Source: an uncultured Actinomycetes bacterium (GTDB taxonomy: Bacteria > Actinomycetota > Thermoleophilia > Solirubrobacterales > Thermoleophilaceae). Taken from it: a stretch of DNA of 64,000 nt. The notes beneath the pieces are model-generated. The model saw only the letters and a list, made by a program, of their open reading frames with translations. It was not told the origin of the DNA and did not search any database. Within the stretch, counting starts at the first letter, position 1, and each line of letters starts with the position of its first letter. This document shows, in pieces, positions 19,170-48,481 of the stretch. The stretch is from contig CAVRTK010000004.1 of NCBI GenBank assembly GCA_963724205.1, forward strand, positions 303,830-367,829, written 5' to 3'. The position numbers and the translations under genes are program-made.

Positions 19170-19713
19170 CGATCCTCCGATCCGATCCTCGATCGTCGTC
19201 TTCAGCTTGTTCATTCCGTTGAACGCTCCGTAGAGCGCCTTCTCCACTCCCGAGCCCTGCGGCGGCAGCATGCCGATCTGGCGGGCGAAGTCGAGCCCGT
19301 CGGAGAACGCGGTGTTGCGCGTGATCCGGCCGTCCTCGACCTCGAGGACGTCGCAGCCCCGGATCTCGATCGGCTTGCCCGGCGCGTCGATGCCCTGGAA
19401 GCGACCGCCGGTGAAGTTGCCGCGCAGCCGGTACTGGACGACCGCGGTGTCGTCGTCGGCCAGGACCCGGTCGACGGTCGTCTCCGCGTCGGGCACCGCG
19501 GCGAACAGCTCGTCGAAGAAGCCGCGGACCTCGTCCGGGCCGCGGAAGATCCCGAACGGGACGATGTCCTCGATGCCCTCCGGGTCCCAGTGGTCGGCCA
19601 TCGCCTGCGGCGTCGCGGGCGGCGACGGCGTCGAAGTAGGAGCGGGCGACCTGCTCGGCGCGTTCTCGGTCGTCGGTCTCGAGGGGCTGCTCACGGGCGT
19701 CGGAAGCTATCAA
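19164..19713 (-). CDS. SnoaL-like/NTF2-fold protein (ester cyclase-like), frameshifted
   Basis: N-terminus ...[27 protein letters not shown] in one frame. The body MADHWDPEGIEDIVPFGIFRGPDEVRGFFDELFAAVPDAETTVDRVLADDDTAVVQYRLRG...RGCDVLEVEDGRITRNTAFSDGL is in another. Confidence 0.7.
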
Positions 19714-20507
19714 CCGTTGTGGTTGGCGGCGGAGTGCTCCGGCCAGCTCGCGCGACCAGCTCGCCGACCGCGTCCGCGCCGCCCTCGCCCGCCGCGCGCA
19801 CCACGCGCGAGCCGACGATCACGCCGTCGGCGATGTCGCCGACCGCGCGCGGCCTGCTCCGGGCGTCGAGATGCCGAAGCCGACCGCCACGGGCACCTAC
19901 GTCGACGCGCGCACCCGCTCCACGGTCCGCCCGATCTCCGGCGGCAGCTCGGCGCGCTCGCCGGTCGTGCCGGTGGTGCTGACCGTGTAGACGAACCCGC
20001 GCGCGTCGCGGCCGACCTCGGCGATCCGCTCGTCGGTCGACGTGGGCGCCACGAGCGGCACGAGCGCGATGCCCGCGGCGTCGCAGGCCGCGCGCAGCTC
20101 GCCGGCCTCGTCGTGGGGAAGGTCGGGGACGATGATCCCGGCGGCGCCGGCGTCGGCGGCCATGCGCGCGAACTCCTCCTGGCCGCGCGCGAGGATCGGG
20201 TTGGCGTAGACCATCAGGACGACCGGGATGCTCGGCGCTCAGCGACTCGCAGACGCCGAGCACGTCGTCGAGCCGGATGCCGTTCGAGCAGCGCCTCCGT
20301 GGCGGCGGCGTGGATCACCGGGCCGTCGGCCAGCGGGTCGGAGAACGGGATCGCCGAGCTCCATCACGTCGGCGCCCGGCGTCGGCCGCCGCGAGCCCGG
20401 CGGCCCGCGAGGTCTCCAGGTCGGGAAAGCCGCCCATCAGGTAGGGCATGAGCGCGGCCCGCTTCCCGTTGCCGGTCCGCGAAGGCGGCGGACAGCCGGT
20501 CACTCAT
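19691..20507 (-). CDS. trpA: tryptophan synthase alpha subunit, frameshifted
   Basis: [46 protein letters not shown]...; [34 protein letters not shown]; C-terminal [16 protein letters not shown]. The ATG overlaps the trpB stop (ATGAGTGA). At least three frames. Confidence 0.8.
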
Positions 20508-21674
20508 CGAGCGAGAGCACCTCGGCCAGGTCCTTGTCGCCGCGGCCGGACAGCGTGACGAGGTCGAGCTCGGACTCCGGGTTCTCGAACAGCCAGGCGA
20601 TCGCGTGCGCGGGCTCGAGCGCAGGGACGATGCCCTCCAGGCGCGCGACCTCCTTGAACGCGGCGATCGCCTCGCGCGTCGGTGACCGCGTCGTAGATCG
20701 ACCCGGCCCTCGTCGCGCAGCCACGCGTGCTGTGGCCCGGAGCCCGGGTAGTCGAGCCCGGCCGACACGGAGTGCGCCTCGAGCACCTGGCCGTCGTCGT
20801 CCTGGAGGACGCGCCGACAGCGCGCCGTGCAGGACGCCGCGGGCGCCGGTGGTCAGCGGGGCGCCGTGGCGGCCGGAGTCGAGCCCCTCGCCCCCGGCCT
20901 CGATGCCGACGAGCTGCACGTCGCGCGTCGTCGAGGAAGCCGGCGAACGTGCCGATCGCGTTGGACCCGCCGCCGACGCAGGCGATCACGCGCTGCGGGC
21001 AGGCGGCCGGTCGACGTCGAGCACCTGCGCGCGCGCCTCGTCGCCGATCACCCGCTGGAGGTCGCGCACGAGCGCCGGGTACGGGGCCGGGCCGACCGCG
21101 GAGCCGATGACGTAGTAGGTGTCCCCGACGTTCGCGACCCAGTCGCGGATCGCCTCGGAGACCGCCTCCTTCAGCGTGCCGGCGCCCGCCTCGACGGGCA
21201 CGACCTCGGCGCCGAGCAGCCGCATGCGCTCGACGTTCGGCTTCTGGCGGCGGATGTCCTCGGCGCCCATGTAGACGATGCAGTCGAGCCCGAACAGCGC
21301 GCAGGCGGTCGCGCGTCGCGACGCCGTGCTGGCCCGCGCCGGTCTCGGCGATGATGCGCTTCTTGCCCATCCGCCGGGCGAGCAGCGTCTGGCCGATCGC
21401 GTTGTTGATCTTGTGCGAGCCGGTGTGGAGCAGGTCCTCGCGCTTCAGGTAGACCGGGTGGCCGACCCGCTCGGAGATGCGCCTGGCGTGGTAGAGCCGC
21501 GTCGGGCGTCCCACGTAGTCGCGCAGCAGGCCGCCGAGCTCCTCCTCGAACGCGGGGTCGCGGCGCGCACTCGATCCAGGCCGCCTCGAGCTCGTCGAGC
21601 GCGGGGACGAGCGTCTCGGGGACGAAGCGGCCGCCGTAGGGGCCGAACTGGCGCTCGACGGGGGTGGTGCTCAT
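20504..21674 (-). CDS. trpB: tryptophan synthase beta subunit, frameshifted
   Basis: [26 protein letters not shown]; [20 protein letters not shown]; [14 protein letters not shown]; [13 protein letters not shown]; C-terminal ...[17 protein letters not shown]. At least four frame fragments. Confidence 0.85.
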
Positions 21675-21699
21675 GCGGCCTCCTGCGGCGCGTCGGGGT

Positions 21700-46843: not shown

Positions 46844-46865
46844 GCCGGGCCGCCGCGAGCGGCGG

Positions 46866-47840
46866 TCACAGCATGACCGTCCGGTAGCGGACGCTGCCGG
46901 CGATCATCGCGGCGAGCTCCGAGGCGTCGACCGCGACCGTGCCGGGCAGCTCCGCGACCGCCCGCAGGCGCCCGATCCCCCGGGCTCGGCGATCGGGCAG
47001 CGCGTAGAGCACGTAGGGCGCCGTCCACAGGAGCGCAGCGGGCTGGCGGCGGGTCAGCGCGAGCCCGGCGAGCGCGAACAGCATCCACATGTGGCGGTGC
47101 TGCCAGAACACCCTCCGGTGCAGGTGCGCCCGCTGCTCGGGATGGCGCTTGACCACCTTCGGCAACGTCTGCCAGCGGGCGTTGAACCTGATGGCCTCGA
47201 GCAGCGAGAACTCGTCGCAGGCGTGGTAGACGAGCGCGCCCGGCTCCCCGGTGTACCCGTAGCCGGCCTTCTCCGCGCGCAGCTTCAGGTCCAGGTCCTC
47301 TCCCGCGCCGGTGATCGACTCGTCGAAGCCGTTCACCTCCTCGAGCGCGGCGCGCGGGTAGAGGATGTTGCAGGTCTGCGCGTGCGGGCCGGGCGGGTCG
47401 TCCTCGTCGATCGACCGCGCGCGCGGCGATCGCATCAGGACGTCGGCCTCGAGCGGGTCGGGCTTGGTCCGCCCCTGGACGATCGACCGCGGGTGGCGCC
47501 GGGCGGCGGCCAGCAGCGTCTCGAGCCAGGCGGGCTCGGGTCGCGTGTCGTCGTCGGTGAACGCGATCGTGGCCGCCCGCGCCGCGCGCCACGCGGTGTT
47601 GCGCTGGCGCGATGCGGTGCCGGTGCCGGGCTCAAGGTGCAGATGGCGCAGGACACCGGCCCTCGCCAGCTCGTGCTCGCGCAGAACGCGCTCGGTGTCG
47701 TCGGTCGAGTCGTGGACGACGACCAGCTCCCAGCGCTCGCGGGCCAGGGTCTGCGCCGCGAGCGCGTCGAGCAGCCGCTCCAGCCGCCACGCGCGCTCGT
47801 GCGAGGGGACGACGACCGATATCTCGGGCTGCCCAGCCAT
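46866..47840 (-). CDS. glycosyltransferase family 2 with C-terminal hydrophobic region (polyprenyl-phosphate sugar transferase-like)
   Basis: Intact 324 aa. ISVVVPSHERAWRLERLLDALAAQT...ELVVVHDSTDDT...TDDDTRPEPAWL (DXD). C-terminal helices HMWMLFALAGLALT / LLWTAPYVLYAL. Confidence 0.8.
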   Translation of the reverse strand: MAGQPEISVVVPSHERAWRLERLLDALAAQTLARERWELVVVHDSTDDTERVLREHELARAGVLRHLHLEPGTGTASRQRNTAWRAARAATIAFTDDDTRPEPAWLETLLAAARRHPRSIVQGRTKPDPLEADVLMRSPRARSIDEDDPPGPHAQTCNILYPRAALEEVNGFDESITGAGEDLDLKLRAEKAGYGYTGEPGALVYHACDEFSLLEAIRFNARWQTLPKVVKRHPEQRAHLHRRVFWQHRHMWMLFALAGLALTRRQPAALLWTAPYVLYALPDRRARGIGRLRAVAELPGTVAVDASELAAMIAGSVRYRTVML

Positions 47841-47860
47841 GCGGCGGGCAGGCTAACCGC

Positions 47861-48481
47861 CTAGCGGCGCCGCGCGTTCAGCTCGGCGAACGCGTCCTCG
47901 AGCGTCAGGTCGCGCGCGGCCATGAGGACGCTCAGGTGGTAGAGGACGTCGGCCGCCTCGGAGGCGACGCGCTCGTCGGTCTCCTCGCGCGCGGCGCGGG
48001 CGACCTCCTCGGCCTCCTCCTCGACCTTCTGGCCGATGAACGGCGGGTCGGCCAGCAGCCTGGCGGTGTACGAGCCGCCGTCGGCCGCCGCCCCCCGCCG
48101 CTCGGCGATCGTGCGCTCCAGCGCGGGCAGCGCCTCGTGCGGCGCGGTCGCCTGCGTGTCGCCGTTGTGGAAGCAGGTGCGCTCGCCGGTGTGGCACGCC
48201 GGCCCCGCGGGCTCGACGAGCGCGAGCAGCGCGTCGGAGTCGCAGTCGTAGCGGAGCGCGCGCACGGCCAGCGTGTTGCCGGACGTCGCGCCCTTGTGCC
48301 ACAGCTCGGCGCGCGAGCGCGACCAGAACCAGGCCTGGCCCGACTCGATCGTCCGGCCCAGGCTGTCCGCGTTCATGTAGGCCAGCGTCAGGACCTCGCC
48401 CGTGCGCCAGTCCTGGACGACGCACGGCGCCAGGCCCTGATCGTCCCAGGCGATCTGGGCGGGATCGACGCTCGTTTCCAT
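47861..48481 (-). CDS. hisIE: bifunctional phosphoribosyl-AMP cyclohydrolase / phosphoribosyl-ATP pyrophosphatase
   Basis: Intact 206 aa. The HisI region ([22 protein letters not shown]...[19 protein letters not shown]...CDSDALL) is fused to a HisE-like C-terminus (SYTARLL...[11 protein letters not shown]...[11 protein letters not shown]). Confidence 0.85.

Follow-up and report, generated by a model that had tools for sequence, protein, structure and literature searches.

Why the tryptophan genes of a bacterium should be held apart by long runs of unrelated genes is the question raised by the window analysed here, a stretch of 64,000 nucleotides (64 kb, G+C about 72%) from an uncultured member of the Thermoleophilaceae (contig CAVRTK010000004.1 of assembly GCA_963724205.1, positions 303,830 to 367,829 of the forward strand). 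It carries hisIE and the seven genes trpEGDCFBA, and an initial annotation had read the DNA between them as accessory DNA acquired horizontally within a core locus. Our comparison with related loci points to a different history, in which no recent foreign island is involved and the hisIE–trp junctions took up accessory genes stepwise, through four or five separate events at the least, which differ in age. We put the probability of this reading at roughly 80%.

The divided his–trp locus

Gene identities were assigned by Pfam scans of frameshift-corrected translations of the window. The trp genes lie on one strand in canonical order according to both Pfam and tblastn, and the arrangement that had been described, with hisIE, trpEGDC and trpFBA on the minus strand in pathway order and split by two blocks, was confirmed by Pfam at the following positions:

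19691..20487, minus strand: trpA (Pfam Trp_syntA, 8.6e-57; TrpA of the related locus L166 aligns by tblastn to 19,754–20,487); frameshifted, with single-base insertions relative to L166
20509..21674, minus strand: trpB (Pfam PALP; residues 1–386 of L166 TrpB covered in 5 high-scoring segment pairs); frameshifted
21713..22372, minus strand: trpF (Pfam PRAI, 1.4e-39; tblastn)
22445..23637, minus strand: htrA, trypsin-like protease with a PDZ domain (Pfam Trypsin_2 and PDZ_2)
23684..25945, minus strand: tgpA-type transglutaminase (Pfam Transglut_core and TgpA_N; syntenic in the moxR-type loci, L165 and L166)
26000..27070, minus strand: DUF58-like protein between moxR and tgpA (position kept; the orthologue at L166:7871–8956 has a weak PF01882 match)
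27127..28084, minus strand: moxR AAA+ ATPase (Pfam AAA_3, 1.5e-59, and AAA_lid_2)
28205..30916, plus strand: SNF2-family helicase (Pfam SNF2-rel_dom and Helicase_C)
35145..35954, minus strand: trpC (Pfam IGPS, 5.9e-79); one single-base insertion at 35,372
35958..36992, minus strand: trpD (Pfam Glycos_transf_3); clean reading frame, no indels relative to locus L169
36992..37586, minus strand: trpG (Pfam GATase, 9.4e-53); frameshifted by 4 single-base insertions
37561..39062, minus strand: trpE (Pfam Chorismate_bind and Anth_synt_I_N); two single-base insertions
39103..47840, both strands: block (a), a glycan-modification cluster of ten genes (Pfam)
47861..48481, minus strand: hisIE, fused PRA-CH / PRA-PH (Pfam PF01502 and PF01503; 83.5% identical to locus L163)
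48526..52070, plus strand: third block, with an amidase, a 139 aa protein of no known family, an ABM monooxygenase, a glyoxalase and small open reading frames (ORFs) (Pfam)
52092..55238, minus strand: upstream backbone era, ybeY, phoH, yqeY and fur (Pfam; syntenic upstream of hisIE in L003, L005, L010, L012, L048 and L087)

Block (a) places 8.7 kb between trpE and hisIE. Block (b), from htrA to a cassette around a quinol-dependent nitric oxide reductase (qNOR), places 12.7 kb between trpC and trpF and includes the plus-strand SNF2 gene, and the trp genes do not have the contiguity of a single transcript. The gene content reported for both blocks was recovered by Pfam except for a transposase label, discussed below, and a weak DUF58 assignment. 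The gene described as DUF58 has the expected position between moxR and tgpA; its family membership is supported in the L166 orthologue by a PF01882 (DUF58) match of E 0.0095 and 15.6 bits against a cut-off of 23.4, while MoxR and TgpA are clear matches. The linkage of hisIE to the trp genes also holds, and the term “his–trp supercluster” is overstated, as Pfam scans of most coding chains found no other his gene in the window. The third block, which parts hisIE from its usual upstream neighbour era, was absent from the initial annotation.

Gene order in relatives

As a probe for related loci we used TrpD, which has a clean ORF and whose flanks of 10 kb on either side span the inner edges of both blocks. 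The probe retrieved 160 loci, half of them (80) in species-representative genomes and half (80) in metagenomes, and these were compared with the window proteins by tblastn. Contigs retrieved through cargo genes brought the set to about 170 loci (numbered with the prefix L). The names of the genome loci are nearly all Thermoleophilia (Thermoleophilaceae, Solirubrobacteraceae, Solirubrobacterales), a few being given only as Actinomycetota or Actinomycetes. TrpD identity ranged from 62 to 73% across the 160 TrpD-retrieved loci, except for a single contig of 1.8 kb (L081) at 93%.

The backbone of these relatives is era–hisIE–trpEGDC–(htrA)–trpFBA. The gap between hisIE and trpE has a median of 37 nt (n = 85) and exceeds 500 nt in only three loci; in the one that was examined, L012, it encodes a Phd/YefM antitoxin. 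The gene following trpC could be identified in 124 loci and is htrA in 63, trpF in 39 and moxR in 22, and the series moxR–DUF58-like–tgpA–htrA–trpF is complete in the moxR-type loci wherever the contig reaches. Genes for qNOR, SPFH, hemerythrin, SNF2 and the glycan cluster were found near the operon in none of the 160 TrpD-retrieved loci. Since hisIE abuts trpE and the trp genes are contiguous across the order, the intervening DNA in the window represents insertion relative to the ancestral order, and to this extent the proposal of insertions into a conserved neighbourhood was borne out.

Upstream of hisIE, relatives carry fur–yqeY–phoH–ybeY–era. The gap between era and hisIE is variable, with a median of 1.5 kb, and the two genes are adjacent in L005. 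Because era lies upstream of hisIE in relatives, the stretch 48,526–52,070 of the window constitutes a third insertion. A separate observation concerns phoH itself, which in L012 (about 2310–4631) and also in L050, L103 and L151 contains an in-frame interruption of some 1.05–1.1 kb, giving one ORF of 773 aa with PhoH matches at both ends; the interruption is probably an intein.

Layers of different age

Loci closer to the window show that the two blocks were not built at one time. Genus-level relatives, with TrpD identities of 85–90%, share the SNF2 gene, the glycan cluster and the upstream amidase with the window. SNF2 orthologues found by homologue search are intact and 78–90% identical, and in L165–L170 the gene, 86–90% identical, lies between moxR and trpC. 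L165 (TrpD 89%, SNF2 88%) has htrA–tgpA–DUF58-like–moxR, then SNF2, then trpC–trpD, without the qNOR cassette and with 105 nt between SNF2 and trpC. L166, a contig of 140 kb, reads trpABF–htrA–tgpA–DUF58-like–moxR, SNF2, trpCDGE and then GT1–TylF–GT8. L169 and L170 hold a 259-aa glyoxalase gene between trpC and SNF2 (L169:4677–5456), and L167 and L168 hold a pyridine-nucleotide oxidoreductase gene on the trpC-facing side of SNF2 (L168:2715–3554), on contigs that stop before any trpC. The 105-nt gap of the convergent SNF2 and trpC genes in L165 (L165:8371–8475) is itself a long palindrome of repeated GCAGTAAGCAG units, which is not kept in the window or in L166 and which is likely a bidirectional terminator.

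Block (a) has a similar history. Its ten genes are:

39,160–39,822, plus strand: CmcI-type methyltransferase
39,845–40,597, plus strand: TylF-type methyltransferase
40,587–41,462, minus strand: GT8
41,459–42,070, minus strand: methyltransferase
42,196–43,665, plus strand: PST flippase
43,691–44,401, plus strand: methyltransferase
44,411–44,758, plus strand: YycE-like protein
44,818–45,675, minus strand: EamA
about 45,672–46,843, minus strand: GT1
46,866–47,840, minus strand: GT2

In L163 the order is trpE (5′ end), GT1, TylF, GT8, two methyltransferases, flippase, two further methyltransferases, GT2, GT1, hisIE and amidase, with the flippase and the amidase each 75% identical to those of the window. 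L163 thus carries the same glycan cluster and amidase around hisIE, and both therefore flanked hisIE already in a common ancestor. The cluster is a mosaic: the CmcI-type methyltransferase, the YycE-like protein and EamA are confined to the window, L163 alone has a second GT1 and two methyltransferases, and the GT2 proteins of the two loci are only 32% identical.

In a neighbor-joining ordering based on TrpD and TrpC, all 22 moxR-type loci form one contiguous block, and the neighbours of the window are L166 and L169. This gives a nested series of layers, with htrA as the oldest. The moxR triad (moxR, DUF58-like, tgpA) is characteristic of a family-level clade; within it, a sub-clade is distinguished by SNF2, the glycan cluster and the amidase, and this genome alone by the qNOR cassette. 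Accordingly, block (b) is not one insertion, given that htrA follows trpC in 63 loci and moxR in 22, that SNF2 is present in L165–L170, and that only the qNOR cassette is genome-specific. Nor is block (a) an acquisition of this genome, because the cluster also separates hisIE from trpE in L163 and L166. The initial annotation had held that close relatives with the same interleaved order and a normal composition would speak for an ancestral arrangement. At the level of close relatives this outcome is seen for block (a), in L163 and L166; SNF2 is shared with L165–L170, and only the qNOR cassette is missing from these closer relatives.

The qNOR cassette

The youngest layer, of about 4.2 kb, occupies the trpC–SNF2 junction in this genome alone among those sampled. 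It consists of four genes:

30932..31372, minus strand: hemerythrin-domain protein (Pfam Hemerythrin, 2.4e-12; the L162 orthologue is 55–56% identical)
31377..32181, minus strand: SPFH/Band-7 protein (Pfam Band_7, 3.4e-37; orthologues follow qNOR and CysTM in L161 and L162)
32208..32726, minus strand: CysTM, a Cys-rich membrane protein (partial PF13751 match)
32750..35094, minus strand: quinol-dependent nitric oxide reductase (PF22085 and PF00115)

The gene at 32750..35094 is predicted to encode a qNOR, in which one chain joins a NorB cytochrome-c-like domain at the N terminus to a heme-copper oxidase subunit I domain, as both domains are found in one protein of about 777 aa (PF22085, 7.2e-54; PF00115, 8.7e-53). 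Homologues are abundant, about 777 aa long and 84–90% identical, and bear the annotation nitric oxide reductase subunit B; those with a name belong to metagenome-assembled genomes (MAGs) of Solirubrobacteraceae, Thermoleophilaceae and Gaiellaceae. They span 85% of the ORF as written in the window, the 3′ end of which is garbled by a frameshift near 33,010. The gene starts with GTG at 35,094, preceded by GGAGGG, 50 nt past the trpC stop codon.

The cassette was also found in four other contexts with unrelated flanks, L161, L162, L171 and L172, none of which adjoins trpC; in L162, no trpC 3′ end is present in the first 71 nt, upstream of qNOR. In all four a protein of 187–205 aa directly follows qNOR (L162:2405–2989; L161:7623–8240; L171:7091–7654; L172:6542–7129), with SPFH, hemerythrin or both nearby. 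Homology of this protein to CysTM of the window (about 170–195 aa) was confirmed for L161 and L162, at 68–72% identity.

CysTM is the ORF that the initial annotation had taken for a transposase remnant. We rejected its interpretation as a transposase or insertion-sequence remnant. It matches only 52 of the 125 positions of PF13751 (positions 1–52, a Cys-rich segment) with 22.2 bits, below the cut-off of 25.1, and the intact L162 orthologue reaches 27.2 bits. No DDE catalytic domain was recognised in CysTM, a repeat search at the block edges found no convincing inverted repeats, and in four other contigs, too, a gene of this size stands directly beside qNOR. The supposed remnant is thus a conserved cassette gene with a partial PF13751 match, and CysTM may be an uncharacterised accessory subunit of qNOR. 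The cassette plausibly serves in nitric-oxide stress. As a whole it behaves as a module that changes its place within the class, and in this genome it sits in the variable slot between trpC and SNF2.

Tests for foreign origin and mobility

If both blocks were recently acquired horizontal islands in a core locus, with a trace of a transposase, they should be foreign to their surroundings. This reading can draw on the absence of both blocks from the matching junctions in all 160 TrpD-retrieved loci, on the several contexts of the qNOR cassette, which suggest mobility, and on two compositional signals. In tetranucleotide profiles (3 kb windows) both blocks lie within about ±1 standard deviation of the mean of the whole 64 kb, apart from the profile window over qNOR, a hydrophobic membrane protein, which at z = −2.0 has the lowest correlation in the region. 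Codon usage, computed on decoded frames, is within the null range for the qNOR cassette, SNF2, the moxR triad, htrA and the third block, and is modestly shifted in block (a) (relative synonymous codon usage distance 0.368 versus a null of 0.237 ± 0.054; G+C at third codon positions (GC3) 0.953 versus 0.970). The foreign compositional signature that had been anticipated across both blocks is therefore not seen; the composition is native, bar this modest shift.

The origin of the cargo is equally local. The best homologues that carry organism names are all Thermoleophilia or unclassified Actinomycetota MAGs, and cargo identities, at 75–90%, are comparable to what the backbone genes show in those relatives. 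No tRNA and no match to an Rfam family was found in the 64 kb, and Pfam scans of most coding chains of the window gave no integrase, transposase or recombinase, bar the partial PF13751 match. Repeats around the blocks are no longer than 46 nt; identity is 65–85% for most of them and about 90% for a few that are short, and none pairs the two edges of either block. Moreover, htrA and moxR–DUF58-like–tgpA are syntenic in many relatives, the SNF2 gene and the glycan cluster, being common to closer relatives, are not recent, and the ORF behind the transposase label is the conserved cassette gene described above. The reading as recent islands is largely refuted for all but the qNOR cassette, and we regard it as unlikely overall. 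What remains of the proposal of horizontal acquisition into a core locus is the insertion itself; its recent, foreign and transposase-linked character was not upheld, and the cassette is the only genome-specific part.

Two other regions of the window differ in composition. A stretch of lower G+C at 10,100–17,600 (0.65–0.69) encodes a branched-chain amino-acid ABC transporter set of two ATPases, permeases and two binding proteins, and a similar set lies between trpC and trpF in L020. The strongest tetranucleotide deviation, with z down to −3.2, is found at 55,000–64,000, outside the his–trp locus, a region with genes for secreted proteins of Big_7- and TSP_3-like type and with a large, regulator-like ORF cut off by the window end.

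Frameshifts and assembly quality

Gene models were obtained from a GC3 frame plot and a frame-switching Viterbi decoder; a plain ORF list and a strict GC3 filter failed owing to frameshifts. Proteins translated in the decoded frames were unbroken and plausible. Within patches at 2.8–7.5, 14–16, 19.6–31.4, 37–38.2, 50.4–52 and 57.4–58.6 kb, the frame shifts once every 100–300 nt. DNA alignments to intact orthologues revealed about 67 single-base insertions versus about 3 single-base deletions at 19.7–31 kb, 35,372 and 37,198–38,165, of which 17 insertions (relative to L167) fall in SNF2 and none in trpD. The insertion sites lie outside homopolymers, often in CGCG-like contexts. The genes trpA, trpB, trpF, htrA, tgpA, moxR, SNF2, trpC, trpG and trpE are frameshifted, as is probably that of DNA polymerase I, and the corrected proteins match their orthologues as well as clean genes do (TrpB 87.6% identical to L166, SNF2 90%). 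Pseudogenisation was rejected as the cause in view of this conservation and of the excess of insertions over deletions; the insertions are most likely long-read consensus errors. The conclusions on synteny are unaffected, and annotated ORFs within the patches are unreliable.

Such errors might suggest that the arrangement is itself partly an artefact of an error-rich long-read contig, with chimeric junctions around the qNOR cassette. The consensus is indeed locally poor, and the two cassette junctions have no support from other contigs. Base-level errors, however, are no sign of structural misassembly, and the cassette junctions are gene-tight, with a proper ribosome-binding site and the GTG start 50 nt beyond trpC. 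Furthermore, the junctions hisIE–glycan cluster, glycan cluster–trpE, trpC–SNF2–moxR and hisIE–amidase recur on independent contigs from other samples. We consider an artefact highly improbable.

Different cargo at the same junctions

The junctions that are filled in the window hold other genes elsewhere. At trpC–moxR, L093 (1938–6733) and L094 (8324–13098) carry 4.8 kb with a TetR regulator, a transporter and a bPH protein. The transporter of L020 mentioned above fills the trpC–trpF junction with 6.5 kb, and L016 has a PKD surface protein there. The trpE–trpG junction exceeds 500 nt in fifteen loci and encodes a cyclase-STAND protein in L021. This recurrence of unrelated cargo fits tolerated insertion at operon junctions and not a single island event. 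One could go further and suppose that the hisIE–trp junctions of Solirubrobacterales and Thermoleophilaceae are recombination hotspots served by an unrecognised, integrase-independent mechanism that fills these positions with unrelated genes again and again, with the long-established htrA and moxR–DUF58-like–tgpA perhaps functionally coupled to tryptophan biosynthesis; this is a speculative idea that we hold to be unlikely.

Proposed history of the locus

The stepwise accumulation that we favour would have started from a backbone of fur–yqeY–phoH–ybeY–era, hisIE–trpEGDC and trpFBA, all on one strand. In a first step htrA would have entered the trpC–trpF junction; this insertion would be old and widespread across the order and would have been lost repeatedly. 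In a second step moxR–DUF58-like–tgpA would have been placed between trpC and htrA in one family-level clade. The third step, in a sub-clade, would comprise the SNF2 gene between trpC and moxR on the opposite strand, the glycan cluster between hisIE and trpE, and the amidase block upstream of hisIE. The last step, seen in no other sampled genome, would have brought qNOR–CysTM–SPFH–hemerythrin into the slot between trpC and SNF2.

Several points weigh against this history. The presence of htrA is patchy across the TrpD and TrpC leaf order, and six htrA-only loci (L088, L005, L100, L006, L089 and L092) lie inside the moxR block, which indicates some losses. The direction of gain versus loss is inferred by parsimony over a simple neighbor-joining ordering. 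The closest locus by TrpD, L081, is a short contig that ends before both junctions, and the junctions trpC–qNOR and hemerythrin–SNF2 are seen in this window only. The codon deviation of block (a) could reflect an older foreign origin. Exact breakpoints and target-site duplications could not be defined against L165, L166, L167 and L169, where the junction DNA is too diverged, and promoter and terminator scans performed no better than shuffles.

The first two of these points would also be expected if the interleaved order were ancestral and the compact hisIE–trpEGDC–trpFBA had arisen by repeated deletion, since htrA presence and absence are interspersed and the six-locus group shows that losses occur. 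Deletion would, however, have to be near-precise many times over and restore gaps of about 10–60 nt, as found in 82 of 85 hisIE–trpE and 36 of 39 trpC–trpF junctions. Moreover, the present ordering points to the compact arrangement as basal, unrelated genes fill one and the same slot from relative to relative, and a nesting of order, family clade, sub-clade and single genome fits successive gains. We judge an ancestral interleaved order to be quite improbable.

The cargo is native to the class and agrees in composition with the remainder of the window. Given this and the lack of mobile-element machinery in the window, recombination is the most likely mechanism, either illegitimate or via conserved flanks after exchange among relatives; a distant donor whose genes arrived by transposition or site-specific integration is a less likely explanation. 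The genes on the opposite strand (SNF2, the first glycan genes and the amidase) would break co-transcription and leave hisIE, trpEGDC with the qNOR cassette, and moxR…htrA–trpFBA as separate transcription units, with new promoters expected in the divergent gaps at about 28,085–28,220 and 39,063–39,160.

Comparison with known systems

For biology at large the locus changes little. It offers a clear and datable case of a biosynthetic operon that gains unrelated genes in a poorly studied soil class, and might be used for a small case study on the way operons erode and accessory modules, such as a nitric-oxide-stress cassette, move about within a lineage. It also illustrates that the lack of a block in distant relatives is no evidence of recent horizontal transfer, that a weak and partial match to a transposase domain can be a conserved cargo gene, and that frameshifting single-base insertions of the kind seen in the window would mislead gene calling.

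Splitting and insertion in trp operons were reportedly discussed by Xie, Keyhani, Bonner and Jensen in MMBR in 2003. As in other invaded whole-pathway operons (trpEGDCFBA), the seven genes are ordered on one strand, non-trp genes occupy the junctions and the trp order is kept. The present case differs in scale, with about 21 kb inserted in many layers into a 7.5 kb operon plus hisIE, and in its cargo of htrA, moxR triad, SNF2, qNOR cassette and glycan cluster; in addition, the nesting of the relatives reveals the relative ages of the layers.

A general concept of bacterial genome plasticity is the integration hotspot, a chromosomal slot flanked by conserved core genes. The junctions era–hisIE, hisIE–trpE, trpE–trpG, trpC and its next gene, and trpC–SNF2 resemble such hotspots in holding unrelated cargo in different relatives, and are unlike them in lying inside a biosynthetic operon without integrases, tRNAs or convincing flanking repeats. 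The MoxR–DUF58–transglutaminase (TgpA) triad is likewise a known gene set. Here it comprises an AAA_3 MoxR, a protein of about 360 aa and a membrane protein with TgpA_N and Transglut_core, on the same strand and tightly spaced; the weak DUF58 match of the middle protein and the location within a trp operon set it apart.

In Mycobacterium tuberculosis hisI (Rv1606) is followed by trpE (Rv1609) and by trpC-trpB-trpA (Rv1611–1613). The window shares with this actinomycete neighbourhood the position of hisI(E) beside trpE and the succession of trpC, trpB and trpA in the same orientation. Most Actinomycetota are without trpF and use PriA instead, and priA is found in a context with his and trp genes (PMC13055916). 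In contrast, the lineage studied here keeps a separate trpF, as well as trpG and trpD within the operon. Overall, the locus is a further instance of a known phenomenon, the invasion of an operon by accessory genes and the formation of variable slots between conserved genes.

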